Part shown: in pieces, positions 46,330 through 53,263 of the stretch
Layout of the letters: every line of letters starts with the position of its first letter
How positions within the stretch are numbered: the first letter of the stretch is position 1
NCBI GenBank assembly: GCA_963842525.1
Contig: CAWJGT010000006.1
Location: forward strand, 128,001 to 192,000
DNA length: 64,000 bases
Direction of reading: 5' to 3'
DNA from: an uncultured Holophagales bacterium
GTDB lineage: Bacteria; Acidobacteriota; Thermoanaerobaculia; Multivoradales; UBA5704
Notes under the pieces: model-generated
What the model was told of the DNA's origin: nothing
What the model saw: only the letters and a program-made list of their open reading frames with translations
The model's database searches: none
Made by a program: the position numbers and the translations under genes

Positions 46330-48576
46330 ATGGCCATTTCGAGCAAGAACATCGCGACCCCGGTGACGCCACCGGCGGTGACCCGCTTCCAGGAGATCCT
46401 CGACTGCCTGGAGGCGCGGCGCCGCGCCTCGGACCCGTCCTTCCTGCGCGCGGTCTACGACTTCTCCGCCGAGATGCACCGCGACCAGCTCCGCCGCTCC
46501 GGCGAGCCGTACATGGTCCATCCGCTCAACGTGGCCTGGCTGCTGGCCGACCTCAACTTCGACCAGACCTGCGTCGCCGTCGGCCTGCTGCACGACGTGC
46601 TGGAAGACACCCTGACCACGCGCGAGGTCCTGGAGAGCGAGTTCGGGGGGGAGATCGCCGAGCTCGTCGACGGCGTCACCAAGATCGGCCGCCACGAGTA
46701 CGTGCGCCGCGACGAGGCCCAGGCCGAGACCTTCCGCAAGATGATCCTGGCCTCGGCCAAGGACATCCGGGTGATCGTCGTCAAGCTCGCCGACCGGCTG
46801 CACAACATGCAGACCCTGCAGCACCTGTCGCCCGAGGCGCGGCGGCGGATCTCGCGCGAGACGCTGGAGATCTACTCCCCGATCGCCCACCGGCTCGGCA
46901 TGGCCAAGGTCAAGGGCGACCTCGAGGACCTCGCCTTCTTCCACCTCTATCCGCACCAGTTCGGCGAGCTCCACACCCGCATCACCGAGAAGATGCGGCT
47001 GGCCCAGGACGACATCCGGGACATCCACGAGAAGCTGGCGAAGAGCCTGGAGGCGGGCGGCGTCGAGGCCGAGATCAGCTTCCGCGTCAAGCGCTACTAC
47101 TCGATCTACGAGAAGCTGCGCCGCCAGGGGATCGATATCTCGCAGCTCTACGACTACCTGGCCTTCCGGATCGTCACCACGGGCCTCAAGGACACCTACG
47201 CCGCCCTGGGCACCGTGCACCAGGCCTGGCGCCCCATCCCGGGCCGCTTCAAGGACTACATCGCGATGCCCAAGCCGAACGGCTACCAGTCCCTGCACAC
47301 CACCGTGGTGGGGTCCAAGGGGCAGCCGTTCGAAGTGCAGATCCGCACGCGCGAGATGGACCTGGTGGCGGAAGAGGGGATCGCCGCCCACTGGCGCTAC
47401 AAGGAGGGCCGGGTCGAGAACCGCGACTACGACCCGAACATCCTCTGGCTGCGCCAGCTCCTGGAGTGGCAGAAGGAGGTGCAGGACCCGCGCACCTTCC
47501 TCACCACCCTCAAGGTCGACCTCTATCCGGACGAGGTCTACGTCTTCACCCCCAAAGGAGACGTCCTCGCTTTCCCGCGCGGCGCCACCCCGCTCGACTT
47601 CGCCTACCGGGTGCACACCGACGTCGGCCACCACTGTGCCGGCGCGCGCGTCAACGGCCGCCTGGTGCCGCTGCGCACGCCGCTCCAGAACGGCGACATG
47701 ATCGAGATCCTGACCAACCCGGCGCGCAACCCGAGCCGCGACTGGCTGACCTTCGTCGTCACCTCGCGCGCCAAGAGCAAGATCCGCCAGTGGCTCAGTA
47801 CGCAGCAGAAGCAGCGGGCCGTGGAGATCGGCCGCCGCCTGTTCGAGAAGGAGGTCCGGAAGTACGGCTCCACCCTGCGGAAGGTCGTGGACGCGCCCGA
47901 AATGGCCGCCTACCTCCAGGGTGAAGGGCTCTCCAGGGTCGACGACCTCTACAGCCGGGTCGGCTTCGGCAAGACCGAGAGCCGGCAGGTGCTGGCGCGC
48001 ATCCTGGGCGAGGAGAAGATGGCCGAGGCGGGGGACAAGCAGCCTCCCGGCAAGATCCGCCAGGCGGTCAGCAAGATCCTCCCCTTTGGCGGTCCGACCA
48101 CCGGGCCGATCCGCGTCAAGGGGCACGGCGACCTGCTGGCCTATCTGGCGAAGTGCTGCAATCCGCTGCCGGGCGAGGAGATCGTCGGCTACGTGACGCG
48201 CGGACGCGGCGTGTCGGTCCACTCCACCGACTGTCCGAATGTCAAGAACCTCATGTACAACCCGGAGCGCGAGATCGAGGTCGAGTGGGCGCGCGGCAAG
48301 GACGACGTCTACCAGATCTCGCTGCTGATCGAGACCGCCGACCAGCCGGGGATGCTGGCGCGCCTGACCGAGGTGATCACCAAGGTGGGGAGCAACATCA
48401 CGCAGATCGAAGCGGAGACCCACGACACCGGCCGCGCCTCGATCGGCGTAGTCTGCCAGCTCCGCGACCGCAAGCACCTGGACAAGCTGATCCGCGAGGT
48501 GCGCTCGATCTCCGGCGTCTTCCGCGTCGACCGCCGCATGACCGGCGGCGGCACGTTCGCCGAAGCGGTCACCTGA
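46330..48576 (+). CDS. spoT: Bifunctional (p)ppGpp synthetase/hydrolase
   Basis: RRSGEPY, LLHDVLED, KLADRLHNM, KDYIAMPKPNGYQSLHT, TGS, CCNPLPG, ACT. Confidence 0.95.
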   Translation: MAISSKNIATPVTPPAVTRFQEILDCLEARRRASDPSFLRAVYDFSAEMHRDQLRRSGEPYMVHPLNVAWLLADLNFDQTCVAVGLLHDVLEDTLTTREVLESEFGGEIAELVDGVTKIGRHEYVRRDEAQAETFRKMILASAKDIRVIVVKLADRLHNMQTLQHLSPEARRRISRETLEIYSPIAHRLGMAKVKGDLEDLAFFHLYPHQFGELHTRITEKMRLAQDDIRDIHEKLAKSLEAGGVEAEISFRVKRYYSIYEKLRRQGIDISQLYDYLAFRIVTTGLKDTYAALGTVHQAWRPIPGRFKDYIAMPKPNGYQSLHTTVVGSKGQPFEVQIRTREMDLVAEEGIAAHWRYKEGRVENRDYDPNILWLRQLLEWQKEVQDPRTFLTTLKVDLYPDEVYVFTPKGDVLAFPRGATPLDFAYRVHTDVGHHCAGARVNGRLVPLRTPLQNGDMIEILTNPARNPSRDWLTFVVTSRAKSKIRQWLSTQQKQRAVEIGRRLFEKEVRKYGSTLRKVVDAPEMAAYLQGEGLSRVDDLYSRVGFGKTESRQVLARILGEEKMAEAGDKQPPGKIRQAVSKILPFGGPTTGPIRVKGHGDLLAYLAKCCNPLPGEEIVGYVTRGRGVSVHSTDCPNVKNLMYNPEREIEVEWARGKDDVYQISLLIETADQPGMLARLTEVITKVGSNITQIEAETHDTGRASIGVVCQLRDRKHLDKLIREVRSISGVFRVDRRMTGGGTFAEAVT

Positions 48577-48636: not shown

Positions 48637-48867
48637 CTACTGCGCCGCCTCGCCCTCTTCCGGCTTCCAGCTCCGCACCGGCGCCTTGACGACTTTGCCG
48701 CTGCGCAGGCAGCGGGTGCAGGTCCAGATCCGCCGCACCCTGCCCTCGATGAGCGCCCGCACGTGCTGCAGGTTGGGCTCCCAGGTGCGCGACGTGACGT
48801 TGTGCGCGTGGCTGACATTGCGGCCGAAGACCGTCTTCTTACCGCAGATCTCGCATTCCTTGGCCAT
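48637..48867 (-). CDS. rpmB: 50S ribosomal protein L28 (Zn-ribbon type)
   Basis: CEICGK...GRNVSHAHN...WEPNL...CTRCLRSGK. Confidence 0.93.
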   Translation of the reverse strand: MAKECEICGKKTVFGRNVSHAHNVTSRTWEPNLQHVRALIEGRVRRIWTCTRCLRSGKVVKAPVRSWKPEEGEAAQ

Positions 48868-48970
48868 GATCTCTCTCCTTCACCCGGGCAGACTCCTACC
48901 CTGAGGGGCAGGGAAGAATACCAGGAAGACGGGCGGGGGGGCAAGGGCGCCCCGCACCGAACGCACCGAA

Positions 48971-49537
48971 GTCTCGGGACGCTGCTTCAGCGTGAGCTCA
49001 CGCTGGTTTTGCGGAGCGTACGCTGGGCCAGCGTCTCGGGACACTGCTTCAGCGTGAGCTCACGCTGGTTTTGCGGAGCGTACGCTGAGCCAGCGTCCCG
49101 GGACACTGCTCCAGCGTGAGCTCACGCTGGTTTTGCGGAGCGTACGCTGAGCCAGCGTCCCGGGACACTGCTCCAGCGTGAGCTCACGCTGGTTTTGCGG
49201 AGCGTACGCTGAGCCAGCGTCCCGGGACACTGCTCCAGCGTGAGCTCACGCTGGTTTTGCGGAGCGTACGCTGAGCCAGCGTCCCGGGACACTGCGCCAG
49301 CGTGAGCTCACGCTGGCTTTGCGGAGCGTACGCTGGGCCAGCGTCCCGGGACACTGCTCCAGCGTGAGCTCACGCTGGTTTTGCGGAGCGTACGCTGAGC
49401 CAGCGTCCCGGGACACTGCTCCAGCGTGAGCTCACGCTGGTTTTGCGGAGCGTACGCTGAGCCAGCGTCCCGGGACACTGCGCCAGCGTGAGCTCACGCT
49501 GGCTTTGCGGAGCGTACGCTGAGCCAGCGTCCCGAGA
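48971..49537. repeat. Tandem array of 9 x 62 bp plus a 9-bp partial unit; each unit has three palindromes
   Basis: Unit GTCCCGGGACACTGCTCCAGCGTGAGCTCACGCTGGTTTTGCGGAGCGTACGCTGAGCCAGC starting at 48971, 49033, ..., 49467. Confidence 0.97.
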
Positions 49538-50523
49538 TCATTTGCCCGCCCGCCGCAGGTCGGCCAGGAAGCCATGGGCCATCTCCAGGGTGATCGTCTC
49601 CCTCTCCACAGCCTCGCAGAACAGCTTGATCGTGGCGAAGGCCTCGCGGGAGACCTTCTGGGCCTGGAACACAGGTACGAGCTGCCGGGTCAGCTCCTGG
49701 ACCTCGGCGGTCCTGTCCTGGCCCAGGTAGAGGACGGCCAGCTCCAGGGAGACCAGAGCCGTGTCGTAGGCGATGTCGAGCGTCAAGAATTCTTTGTGCA
49801 CCTGCTCGAAGGCCGCTTCGGTGCCCTGGGGCTCGCCGCGAAAGTTGGCGATCCTCCCGCCCAGCCAGGTCAGGCGCACCAGATCGAGCTGGTTGCCGAG
49901 CCGGATCGCCTGGTCCCGGACCTCGTCGATCATGGCCTCGGCTTCGGTGTGTCGGCCGAACTCCGCCAGCTCGATGGCCTTATCGGCGTCGTGGGCCGCG
50001 GCTTCGATGCTCAAGTTGCACAGAAGCTCGCTAAGCCCCAACTGTGGAATTCCGGGCTCTGCCGCACCTGAGTCCGCCTCTGCTCGGGCGCGAGGGGCTT
50101 CAGGCGATCCCACAGCCAGGGGGCAATGCGCCGCTCCACTTCGGCTGCTTCCCAGGCGGATGGATGAGGCTGCCCGGGCAGAGCTTCGAGCTGCTTTCCC
50201 AGCGAGGTCTCCAGTATCCGGGCGAGCCGCACCGCGGACCGGGTGGCACCGGCCGCCGTCGAGCCTCCCTGCAAAGTGAGCTCGGCATAGGGGGCAAGGA
50301 GGTCGGCGACGGCTTCCAGAAGCGGGATCGTCACGCGCAAGGCATGGGCGAGCCGCCGGAGCGTCGCGGGCTGCGGGATGAGCAGGCCCTGCTCGTAGTC
50401 CAGAACCACGTGCGGCTTCAGCCGGGCAGCCCGGGCCACGTCTTCCGGGCTCAGGCGGCGCAGCGCCCGGAACGCGGCCAGTGCTGCATGAAGGCCGGGC
50501 CGTCCTTGCGGTCTCTTCCTCAT
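49538..50523 (-). CDS. XRE-family HTH plus TPR-like helical regulator (1-nt frameshift in a G run near 50037; probably internally deleted)
   Basis: GGAGGAG RBS; FRALRRLSPEDVARAARL...DYEQG...PQPATLRRLAHAL; helical C-terminus YDTALVSLELAVLYL. Confidence 0.8.
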
Positions 50524-50646
50524 CTCTCCTCCTGAAAATCCTGGTTGTCACGGCTTCCATGAGACGAAACGCACCATACTTTTCGGAACCCTGCCCCCGT
50601 GACCATCGGGGCCGCGGGCGGGTAGCGATCCTGAAAGGAGCTGCGC

Positions 50647-51012
50647 ATGACATCGTTTTCGTTCCGCCGCAAGGTCCTTGTCCTCCTCTTGGTCGGAGCG
50701 TTTAACATGCCCTGGGCTCTGGCTGCAGAGCCGCTAACTTCCCCCGAGCGTGCTCAGACCTTCGATTGGGCCCCGCTCGACCTCCTCTCCGGCTTTTGGA
50801 GAGCTCTTATCACTCTCTGGGGCGAGGAAGGTTGCACCATCGACCCGTACGGTCGCTGCATCACCAGCCCTGGCAGCGGCGCCACCTCGGGCACGACGGG
50901 TGACAACGGGTGCACCATCGACCCAAGTGGCCGCTGCCTGCCCACCTCCCTCCCCTCTCCCCGGCACTCGGCCGGCTCATTCCAGTCCGCCGGGAGAGGG
51001 GGCGCTTCATGA
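50647..51012 (+). CDS. Small secreted precursor with two GCTIDPxGRC motifs
   Basis: AAAGGAG RBS; signal peptide; W-rich helix; EGCTIDPYGRC and NGCTIDPSGRC. Confidence 0.75.
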   Translation: MTSFSFRRKVLVLLLVGAFNMPWALAAEPLTSPERAQTFDWAPLDLLSGFWRALITLWGEEGCTIDPYGRCITSPGSGATSGTTGDNGCTIDPSGRCLPTSLPSPRHSAGSFQSAGRGGAS

Positions 51013-51485
51013 GCCCGCCCGCCGGAGGTCGTTCAGGAAGCCCCGGGCCATCTCCAGGGTGATCGTCTCCTTTTCCACGGCTTCGCAGAACAGCTTGACG
51101 GTGACGAAGACCTCACGGGAAACCTTCTGCGCCTGGAACACTGGGGCGAGTTGCCGGGTCAGCTCCTGGACCTCGGCCGTCCGGTCCTGGCTCAGGTAGA
51201 GGACGGCCAGCTCCAGGGATACCAGGGCTGTGTCGTAGGCGATGCCGAGCGCCAGGAAATCTTTACGCACCTGCTGGAAGGCCGCTTCGGCTTCCCGAGC
51301 CTCTCCGCGAACGTTGGCGATCCTTCCGCCCAGCCAGCTCAGGCGTACCAGATCGAGTTGATTCCCGAGCCGGATCGCTTGTTCTCGAACCTCGTCCATC
51401 ATCCTTTCGGCCTCGGCGTGGCGGCCTACTTGGTGCAGGTTCTCCAAGAGGTTGAACCGCAGGCCCCACAGTACCCGCGGCTCGC
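51007..51485 (-). pseudogene. C-terminal half of a second XRE/TPR-like paralog
   Basis: Closely similar to about 49540-49955 at DNA and protein level; no N-terminus. Confidence 0.8.
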
Positions 51486-51873
51486 GAAGTTGCGGGAAGC
51501 GGCCGTGTACAGGCCGGACCGCCAGGGCAGTCTCGAGGTGGGTCCGGGACCGGCTGTGAAAGATGTCGAGAGCCGCGAGCTGAACCTTGACGTCTTCCAC
51601 GAAAGCACCCGTCGAGCGCTCTATGACGTCGTGGTGCGGGACAACTTCACCGAGCGCGCACTCGATCCTGAGGCTGATCCGCCGGAGGTCTGGGTGCCGC
51701 CGTATACCCCGGACGAGGCGCAACTGGAGGTCTTCTTCCTGCTGGGCCGCTGGTTCGCCACCTGGCGGAAGCTGGAGGCGCCGGCCGACGCTCCGGAGCA
51801 CGAGCGACAGGAGCTGCTGCGCCTCGAGCCCCACCGGCATCGACCGGGGGACATCGAATACACGGACGTCTGA
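51480..51873 (+). pseudogene. 5'-truncated hypothetical gene
   Basis: Coding-like frame ...WVPPYTPDEAQLEVFFLLGRWFATWRK...IEYTDV with no credible start after the junction. Confidence 0.5.
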
Positions 51874-52095
51874 ATCCGCGCAACCCCTCCTTTGACCCTC
51901 GCCGATTCCCCCTCCAGGCGGAACTGTGGCAGAATGTGCTGCAACGCCAGCCCAGGCAGGTTTCCAGGCTCGCAGGACTCCGCGAGGGTGTGAAGCAGGT
52001 CACACAACTCCCGTGGAATTCGGCACTTGCACGCCGCGGGAGGAAGGTATAGAGTTCCCGCACTGGTCCATATAGTCATACACGCATTGGGTGGC

Positions 52096-52124
52096 TTGAC
52101 AGGGGTGTAGTTTGCTGCTAGCTT
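52096..52124 (+). promoter_or_regulatory. Sigma-70 promoter of the pil operon
   Basis: TTGACA-17 bp-TAGCTT. Confidence 0.6.
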
Positions 52125-52193
52125 CGAGCGAAGCTTTAAGTACGTTGCGCTAAGTAGGCATCAAAGCTGGATTTTCAGGGGGCTCGAAACGCC

Positions 52194-53263
52194 GTGCTCT
52201 TCTCCCGGTCCAAAAAGGGTGTCGTCGGTCTGGACATTGGCAGCTCGGCGATCAAGCTGGTCGAGCTCCGCGAGCGCAAGGGGGAGTACCACCTCCAGCG
52301 CCTCGGGGTGGAGCCGCTGTCGCCGGAGGCGATCGTGGACGGCTCGATCATGGACTCGTCCCTGGTGGTCGACGCGATTCACCGCCTGAACGACCAGACC
52401 AAGGTCAAGAACACCTCCTATGCAACGTCGCTGTCGGGTCACTCGGTGATCATCAAGAAGATCCAGCTCCCGGCCATGCCGCAGGAGGAGCTGCGCCGAG
52501 TCGATCCAGTGGGAGGCCGAGCAGTACATCCCCTTCGACATCAACGACGTGCGCCTCGACTACGAGGTGCTCGAAGCGGGCGAGCCCCGGGCGGGACAAC
52601 ATGGAGGTGCTGCTCGTCGCGGTCAAACGCGACAAGGTCAACGACTACGTGTCGGTGATCAGCCAGACGGGCAAGACGCCGACGATCGTCGACGTCGACG
52701 TCTTCGCGGTGCAGAACGCCTACGAGGCCAACTACGACCTCGATCCGCGCAAGGTCGGTGGCGCTGATCAACATGGGCGCCGGGGTGACCAACATCAACA
52801 TCATCGCCCGCGGCCAGACGGTCTTCTGGCGCGACATCTCCTTCGGCGGCAATCAGTTCACGGAGGCGCTGCAGCGCGAGTTCAATCTCTCCTTCGCGCA
52901 GGCCGAGGCGCTCAAGCAGGGCGAGGCGGTGGATCGCTACAGCCCGGCGGACGCGCAGGCCGGTGCTCGACACGGTCTCGGCCGAGATGGCGTCGGAGAT
53001 CCGCAAGACCTTCGACTTCTTCTCGGCGACCTCGTCGGAGGGGCCGGTCGACGAGCTGGTGCTCTCGGGCGGCTGCGCCCTGACGCCCAACCTGCTGCAG
53101 GTGCTGCGGGACCGCTTCGAGGTGCCGACGGAGCTGATGAATCCGCTGCGGCGGATCAAGTATCAAGGAGAGCGACTTCGACGCCGACTGGCTGCAGTCG
53201 ATCGCTCCGATGATGGCGGTCGCTGTGGGGCTCGGCATCCGCAAGGTAGGGGATTGCCGATGA
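52194..53263 (+). CDS. pilM: Type IV pilus assembly protein PilM (about 5 frameshifts)
   Basis: VGLDIGSSAIK, WEAEQYIPF, VLLVAVK, DISFGG, LSGG, AVAVGLGIR across frames. Confidence 0.85.

Follow-up and report, generated by a model that had tools for sequence, protein, structure and literature searches.

Small exported DPxG-motif proteins paired with putative tetratricopeptide-repeat sensors form a large, undescribed gene family in soil Acidobacteria, with a damaged copy between rpmB and pilM

Genetically encoded peptide signals read by cytoplasmic receptors built of tetratricopeptide repeats (TPR) are treated, in the account that accompanies a search tool for them, as a speciality of Gram-positive Bacillota together with their phages and plasmids (PMC10075063). 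That account gives such RRNPP systems a five-point signature, consisting of a small propeptide, a Sec signal, a receptor of ~250-500 aa, TPRs, and adjacent genes, and the limit of 10-100 aa that its tool sets for a small propeptide is a software default (PMC10075063). We analyzed a stretch of 64,000 nucleotides (G000:C6:128001-192000, hereafter the window), part of a 9.95-Mb genome of 34 contigs, in which the gene of a small protein with a signal peptide and two Cys-closed DPxG loops is flanked by two genes related to TPR receptors. The system to which this locus belongs resembles NprR-NprX of the Bacillus cereus group in the fusion of an XRE-type helix-turn-helix (HTH) domain to a long TPR superhelix and in the adjoining gene for a small Sec-type exported peptide. 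It differs from NprR-NprX in its host, a diderm Acidobacterium, in its precursor, which is longer, carries 2-5 Cys-closed loops and a conserved W-rich helix, and is encoded on the opposite strand between two receptors, and in the presence of dozens of modules per genome. No sequence relationship to NprR was detected among the best 60 of 133 profile matches to PDB sequences. The peptide-plus-sensor pairs constitute a very large, undescribed, lineage-specific, and massively expanded family of Thermoanaerobaculia-type soil Acidobacteria.

The locus had been singled out by a reading of the DNA letters and their translations (the sequence-only reading), which proposed a multi-copy peptide-receptor system and a scan of small open reading frames (ORFs) for its motif. 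The strict pattern C.[ILMV]DP.G..?C was found 40 times in 22 small ORFs of the genome, a recurrence that exceeds chance. A hidden Markov model (HMM) built from these 22 ORFs retrieved 54 peptide ORFs at E≤1e-3, 52 of them unique, and a profile of the last ~134 residues of the receptor retrieved 89 family-specific TPR domains. Peptide and receptor genes were direct neighbors: 45 of the 54 peptide ORFs lay within 2.5 kb of a family receptor domain, several of the other nine were located at contig ends, and 57 of the 89 receptor domains had a peptide ORF nearby. Adjacency was also determined in five further genomes, of which three belong to the same taxonomic family and two to other families. Each of the 42 peptide matches there was within 849 bp of a receptor-family gene, a distance that covers only ~1-2% of each genome. 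The peptide gene was upstream of the receptor gene on the same strand in 28 pairs, convergent with it in 8, divergent in 4, and downstream in 2. Conversely, a peptide match accompanied 49 of the 113 long matches to the receptor. These results establish the genome-wide linkage of peptide and regulator that the sequence-only reading had predicted.

With the peptide profile, every one of 24 genomes in the taxonomic family gave matches, between 2 and 50 per genome, as did 7 of 16 that represent other families of the order. No match at E≤1e-5 was obtained in a phylum-wide sample of 200 genomes, for which only 23 candidates per genome were scored. Among 1.84 billion representative proteins, the profile matched 3204 metagenomic clusters at E≤1e-3 and 1083 at the stricter limit of E≤1e-10. 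The peptide ORFs are therefore conserved. The consensus obtained from 153 short proteins among the best matches, comprising 485 repeat units, was [DKE]-[NE]-G-C-x-[ILV]-D-P-x-G-x-C, with G-C and D-P-x-G nearly invariant and variation at three positions. A simple rule for Sec-type signal peptides (positive n-region, hydrophobic core, and small-x-small site) was passed by 147 of the 153 proteins. Precursors among the database matches listed were mostly ~95-150 aa in length, some having ≤100 residues. A few much larger proteins of 669-783 aa (P0028, P0033, and P0139) contained 9-11 matched stretches of the same x-[IL]-D-P-[ND]-G repeat, partly with a period of 9, as in G-x-G-V-D-P-N-G-K. For the receptor, at least 421 homologs were found at E≤1e-20, mostly of 460-525 aa and annotated only as HTH or TPR proteins, the named relatives being Thermoanaerobaculia metagenome-assembled genomes. 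A scan for relatives with a single protein gave one true relative (L021), whose contig begins at the receptor gene and has no peptide gene downstream. Searches of Pfam and NCBIfam revealed no family covering the peptide and none specific to the receptor, with nothing over the cut-offs in NCBIfam. In the ESM Atlas, the only matches were 'hypothetical protein' clusters from Acidobacteriota, and a literature search at the title and abstract level found no paper that deals with this motif or that describes RRNPP-like systems from Acidobacteriota or Thermoanaerobaculia.

Modules of this genome fall into two subtypes. In the first, to which the window belongs, a Cys-loop peptide is encoded on the opposite strand between two XRE-HTH/TPR receptors, and 9 of the 10 receptors examined had a Pfam HTH. 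The second comprises "linear" peptides with repeats ending in ...[IL]DP[ND]G, whose genes immediately precede, in the same orientation, those of TPR proteins that start with a CxxC motif; Pfam detected no HTH in these proteins (0 of 16). An XRE receptor was the partner of 17 of 20 Cys-loop peptides versus 1 of 24 linear peptides, indicating that peptide type tracks receptor type. In a FastTree phylogeny of 74 C-terminal domains (134 columns), all 19 XRE-labelled rows fell into one 24-row subtree (Shimodaira-Hasegawa-like support of 88) nested among the other receptors, and the two copies of the window were sisters, placed beside an intact paralog from contig C9. Considering both subtypes, 16 of 52 peptides stop exactly at the last DPxG glycine and 43 of 52 within 6 residues of it. 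This feature, together with the combination of HTH and TPR domains and the adjacent exported propeptide, recalls PlcR-PapR and AimR-AimP, whose propeptides contribute their C-terminal end as the mature signal. The Cys-loop subclass ends in ...G-R-C-x-x-G-S and has no free linear tail. The CxxC-head receptors, lacking an HTH, are reminiscent of Rap-Phr of Bacillus and its phages and plasmids. Rap proteins, too, are TPR receptors that have no DNA-binding domain; they target other regulators, each has an exported-peptide gene as its partner, and a genome encodes many paralogs. The CxxC-head receptors differ in the head, a CxxC helical domain rather than the N-terminal bundle of Rap, and in gene order, the peptide gene being upstream of the receptor gene (28 of the 42 pairs), whereas phr lies downstream of rap. 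Two further observations concern module composition. At G000:C9:422657-435563 (L020), five CxxC-head TPR receptors are encoded in tandem on one strand within 13 kb, with only one peptide-like ORF detected (HMM E 1.4e-05). A family of small XRE-like HTH proteins (for example C24:109119-109580, C19:526695-527168, and C4:251081-251578) is present in 15 copies, of which 10 lie no more than 2 kb from a receptor gene, often convergent with its 3' end. It is possibly a third component of some modules.

Comparison of receptors within and between loci revealed discordant histories of heads and sensors. In five two-receptor loci, the first 120-160 residues of the partners were 18-31% identical, and their TPR parts were mostly 75-100% identical (57-85% for the pair on C11). 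Three loci were compared by head type. Divergent "A" heads were 56-79% identical between loci and convergent "B" heads 68%, against 30-37% between the A and B heads of one locus. The C-terminal TPR domains of the same loci grouped by locus, with 71-89% identity within and 48-75% between loci. Across the family, whose median identity is 35%, the nearest paralog was the neighbor for 18 of the 27 domain copies that have a neighbor within 3.5 kb. The head and sensor trees thus disagree, a sign of concerted evolution of the sensors through gene conversion or through selection for likeness within a locus, and recent partial duplication may play a part as well. Besides the sensors, nothing in these loci is locus-specific except the peptide gene between the receptors. 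This discordance, a comparison of sequences, provides the strongest indirect indication of a sensor matched to the local peptide.

The intact paralog on contig C9 (G000:C9:1870552-1872000, 482 aa) was used to model the receptor. The AlphaFold model (predicted local distance difference test, pLDDT, 88.6) comprised an HTH (residues 10-60), followed by a flexible linker of low confidence (97-122) and by a TPR superhelix (126-481). The sequence of this protein matched TPR_12 with an E of 1.2e-20, in addition to further TPR models. Foldseek placed the TPR of LGN/Pins (3sf4_C, rank 1, E 1.2e-06) and designed TPRs on top, with RapJ-PhrC at rank 18. A second structural aligner run beside Foldseek gave Z scores of 22.4 for LGN (5a6c_A, root-mean-square deviation [rmsd] 3.7 over 312 residues), 20.6 for apo NprR (5dbk_A, rmsd 4.2 over 299 residues), 20.6 for RapJ-PhrC (4gyo_A), ~20.4 for phi3T Rap, 19.9 for NprR-NprX (4gpk_I), 18.6-19.5 for APC/C subunits, ~18 for IFIT1, and only 17.5 for PlcR-PapR (2qfc_A, rmsd 12.5). 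NprR and Rap scored 19.8-20.6 amid unrelated TPR solenoids at 18-22. The inner groove of LGN, the best structural match to the superhelix, binds extended peptides according to the titles of its entries; LGN is, however, a eukaryotic protein without an HTH, 14-17% identical to the receptor, and functionally unconnected to it. As modelled, the receptor is a long TPR solenoid of the peptide-binding type, which is compatible with an RRNPP receptor and not diagnostic of one. The sequence-only reading had supposed a TPR-like peptide-binding fold: the high-confidence superhelix aligning with LGN, NprR, and Rap is in keeping with it, but the match is not specific, as it extends to APC/C and IFIT proteins. 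The model of a CxxC-head receptor (m7179feaf90b0, pLDDT 90.4) displayed three short N-terminal helices followed by the same solenoid, with the His/Cys motif on helices 21-33 and 35-49.

The elements of the window are listed in Table 1. The sequence-only reading had described the peptide gene as a 121-aa ORF with a signal peptide, a W-rich helix, and two cores, all of which was borne out by the translation. The product consists, in this order, of MTSFSFRRKVLVLLLVGAFNMPWALA followed by AEP..., the W-rich segment FDWAPLDLLSGFWRALITLWGE, EGCTIDPYGRC, and NGCTIDPSGRC. Its N-terminus has the positive start (RRK), the hydrophobic core (VLVLLLVGAF), and the cleavage-type site (ALA/AEP) of a signal peptide. 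The tail past the second loop is unusually long, placing the protein among the long-tailed members of the family (26-27 residues), and overlaps the stop of receptor B. AAAGGAG is present at 50634-50640, 6 nt 5' of the peptide ATG. A scan of positions 49400-52200 found no sigma-70 consensus promoter and no terminator, and no inverted repeat was found in 50480-50700. A related peptide gene had also been reported 32 kb away. The ORF exists and carries AGCGIDPNGAPLLC, but its relationship to the family is weak and no receptor gene adjoins it.

Table 1. Features of the window and their coordinates.
Feature	Position	Strand	Description
Orphan peptide-like ORF, 105 aa	18282-18599	-	Signal-like N-terminus, W-containing helix, one GCGIDPNG motif; HMM E 0.039
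Inserted block, ~3.1 kb, approximate extent	48960-52035		Absent between rpmB and pilM in two same-genus genomes
Tandem array, 62-bp palindrome-bearing unit	48971-49534		9.1 copies, 97% matches; left part of block, abuts receptor A 3' end
Receptor A, C-terminal TPR part	49538-50062	-	Other frame than HTH part; TPR_12 E 0.024
Receptor A, N-terminal part, 170-aa ORF	50011-50523	-	XRE-type HTH (residues 14-71) and linker, then stop
Divergent intergenic region, 123 nt	50524-50646		Blocks conserved in the two closest paralogous loci
Exported peptide precursor, 121 aa	50647-51012	+	Signal peptide, W-rich helix, two C-x-I-D-P-x-G-R-C loops; family HMM E 1.4e-35
Receptor B remnant, 277 aa	51007-51840	-	Last ~160 residues of TPR domain only; no HTH

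The receptors flanking the peptide gene are both damaged or truncated, contrary to the intact regulator that the sequence-only reading had assumed at the locus. It had taken 50523-49538 for a single gene; the HTH and TPR parts are in different frames and 465 nt of the TPR region are gone. The head of receptor A matched HTH_31 (33.5 bits, cut-off 27) and HTH_3 (27.3 bits, cut-off 23) in Pfam, as expected for a Cro/C1-type HTH, and was 79% identical to that of the intact C9 paralog. Its C-terminal part showed 82% identity to residues 336-477 of the 478-aa protein P0161. Alignment of the DNA with the intact C9 paralog revealed a 1-nt gap in a run of G residues (window 50036-50039), shortly after which the HTH ORF stops, and a 465-nt in-frame gap with its junction near 49959/49960, which removes 155 TPR codons just upstream of the last ~143 residues. 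Receptor B, which had correctly been recognized as a second C-terminal paralog on the other side, was 81% identical to receptor A over 143 aa. It matched only positions 293-451 of the profile model, and its first ~118 residues were unlike the family. An assembly error may lie behind the 1-nt break, since the adjoining pilM gene is split into four frames. Many receptor paralogs also appear as abutting pieces in this assembly, so that frame breaks of a single base may be assembly errors. Contigs from one public run cover the region in fragments. One of them, of 230 nt, spans the G run ungapped, but it does not settle the frameshift since the G run is located ~5 nt from the contig end and the contig has 13 mismatches. 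Without the 1-nt break, receptor A would encode an HTH-TPR protein of 327 aa, comparable in size to PlcR or Rgg. Assembly errors of a single base do not account for the 465-nt gap or for the headless receptor B.

The window copy was inserted secondarily and is partly degraded. The rpmB and pilM flanks are ~150 bp apart in the genome G004 of the same genus and ~175 bp apart in G003, compared with ~3.1 kb in the window; in three further genomes of the genus the flanks are on different contigs and are uninformative. The inserted block contains the 62-bp tandem array, receptor A, the peptide gene, and the headless receptor B. There is about an even chance that this copy is a non-functional relic, that is, a partial duplicate of a canonical locus which landed between rpmB and pilM and is decaying, an account compatible with any interpretation of the family as a whole. 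The two genomes without the block, the loss of 155 codons and the frame break in receptor A, the missing head of receptor B, the atypical peptide tail, and the repeat array bordering the block all fit such an origin. They have to be set against the facts that the 465-nt gap is in frame, that the 1-nt break is possibly an error beneath which an unbroken HTH-TPR gene is present, and that the peptide gene has kept an intact ORF and ribosome-binding site next to intact intergenic blocks. With receptor A shortened and possibly frameshifted and receptor B headless, the module in the window may have ceased to function.

For the family, peptide sensing by the neighboring TPR receptors, in a module resembling those of RRNPP systems, is the most likely mechanism and one that we hold with roughly even confidence. 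We rate it first because four of the five signature points are present, namely the Sec signal, the receptor length (482 aa for the intact paralog), the TPRs, and the adjacent genes. The fifth, propeptide size, is exceeded by the 121-aa ORF of the window and by the 103-aa peptide of the closest intact module, although the 10-100 aa limit is no biological boundary. The host range also departs from Bacillota and mobile elements, the relatives being from Thermoanaerobaculia. The suggestion of the sequence-only reading that an analogous multi-copy receptor-peptide system exists in a diderm is supported in part: of the three outcomes that it named as refuting, none was observed, two of the checks coming out in its favor and one partially so. 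An intact regulator at the locus itself is not supported. RRNPP-like as it is on paper, the family is not counted as an RRNPP member: no homology is detectable, the host belongs to another phylum, and the precursors are longer, with multiple cores.

A module consists of a small protein with a Sec-type signal and one or two TPR proteins that are predicted to be soluble and cytoplasmic. The former comprises a signal peptide, a W-rich helix, and 1-5 repeats centered on [ILV]-D-P-x-G, with a C-x7-C closure of each repeat in the Cys-loop subclass, and the latter an XRE HTH head, as in the subclass of the window, or a CxxC-motif head. According to the proposed mechanism, the peptide would be exported and oxidized, and it may also be cleaved, either in the periplasm or extracellularly. 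The peptide or a fragment would then re-enter and be sensed by the TPR superhelix of the neighboring receptors, which would alter transcription through their HTH heads, including that of the divergent peptide gene.

Several observations weigh against peptide sensing. The receptor is predicted to be cytoplasmic and the peptide to be exported, which in a diderm puts two membranes in the path of the signal, and the disulfide loop would be reduced on entry into the cytoplasm. No importer was linked to the modules: three SBP_bac_5 genes were found, two of them within ~3 kb of modules and none beside permease genes. A link to an Opp-type importer was rejected on the same grounds, one SBP_bac_5 gene being located beside a histidine kinase and none adjoining permeases. 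Clustering of the neighbors of 65 loci, a noisy analysis, revealed no recurrent transporter or protease; the small XRE-like protein emerged from it. The conservation of the core motif, with three variable positions per loop, would expose 50-90 channels per genome to cross-talk. The precursors, mostly of ~95-150 aa, are longer than typical RRNPP propeptides, and the presence of the DPxG repeat in the 669-783-aa proteins suggests, from sequence comparison, a structural or ion-binding repeat rather than a signal. The best 60 of 133 profile matches to PDB sequences included only generic TPR proteins and no RRNPP receptor, the modelled fold does not set RRNPP receptors apart from other TPR solenoids because APC/C and IFIT1 score Z 18-19.5, and both receptors are damaged in the window itself.

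Peptide sensing may be extended, tentatively, to dozens of parallel peptide-pheromone channels per cell. Each precursor would supply 2-5 disulfide-stapled nine-residue loops, and two receptors with a shared, gene-converted sensor and different heads would convert one signal into two regulons. The loop would be C-x-[ILV]-D-P-x-G-x-C, with specificity residing in its three variable positions, and the whole would be the diderm counterpart of RRNPP. We regard this extension as possible, on the doubtful side.

Control of cargo genes offers an alternative to peptide sensing. The DPxG/Cys-loop proteins would be extracellular or periplasmic effectors (ion-binding, antimicrobial, surface, or matrix proteins) whose expression is controlled by the HTH/TPR proteins in response to another cue, the peptide being an output and not a ligand. 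Near invariance of G-C and D-P-x-G in the 485 units is what would be expected of a structural unit, and the same repeat builds proteins of 669-783 aa in 9-11 matched stretches. The divergent layout around a shared and conserved intergenic region fits simple transcriptional control, and no importer was linked to the modules. However, this alternative does not explain why nearly all of the dozens of peptide genes come with a TPR protein of their own (42 of 42 in the other genomes), why sensors are alike within a locus when their heads are unlike, or why peptide type tracks receptor type. We consider it rather unlikely.

An intracellular partner switch is improbable. The TPR domain would bind the precursor ahead of export, perhaps at the amphipathic W-rich helix, or another protein, either a sigma factor or a small repressor of the XRE type, and export would free or engage the regulator, as in secretion-coupled regulation or with anti-sigma or anti-repressor proteins. 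Both partners are made in the cytoplasm, 10 of the 15 small XRE-like genes are within 2 kb of a receptor gene, and the CxxC heads resemble zinc-binding anti-sigma (ZAS) domains in their short His/Cys helices, with H-x3/4-C-x2-C present in 25 of 48 full-length receptors. Two CxxC receptors directly follow a Sigma70_r2 gene of the extracytoplasmic function (ECF) type (C34:43598 and C34:46015). This locus (L029, G000:C34:43598-47867), in which a sigma gene, a receptor, and a peptide-like ORF are followed by a second sigma gene and a second receptor, both receptors being of the CxxC class, is the only place seen with gene-order support for an anti-sigma role. Most modules, unlike ZAS factors, have no sigma gene nearby, and a link to ECF sigma factors was rejected as only a few of 47 Sigma70_r2 matches adjoin modules. 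A canonical ZAS motif was rejected as well: the commonest spacing is H-x4-C-x2-C (22 of 48) versus the H-x3-C-x2-C of ZAS domains (3 of 48), and Pfam zf-HC2 gave no significant match in seven N-termini, the best being E 2.3 in one of them. Finally, Sec substrates are exported constitutively, and export would carry little information.

Acidobacteria are a two-membrane phylum that dominates soils. If peptide sensing is correct, a strictly linked and conserved family with 50-90 pairs per genome would extend RRNPP-type signaling to diderms, raise the question of how peptides pass the outer membrane, and offer a large natural set of receptor-peptide pairs. The association of the same sensor with different DNA-binding heads within a locus would be a testable design principle. 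Even as regulated cargo, the peptides form a family of more than 3000 clusters without a Pfam or NCBIfam model. The value of the window locus itself is lower because this copy is inserted and damaged.

Additional features were observed around the block. The 62-bp unit of the array contains a perfect 18-nt palindromic core, which is present in 10 arrays of the genome, three of them directly beside receptor-family genes (in the window and at C11:142057 and C32:36501). On the left, the gene at 48637-48867(-) is presumably rpmB, judging from its translation. On the right, pilM (52227-53193) consists of four consecutive PilM_2 pieces (1-84, 124-171, 177-236, and 245-323) in different frames, reflecting either a broken type IV pilus gene or single-base indel errors of the assembly. 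Just upstream of the block, at 46330-48576, is an intact 748-aa ORF, which we take from its translation to encode a RelA/SpoT-type (p)ppGpp synthetase/hydrolase.

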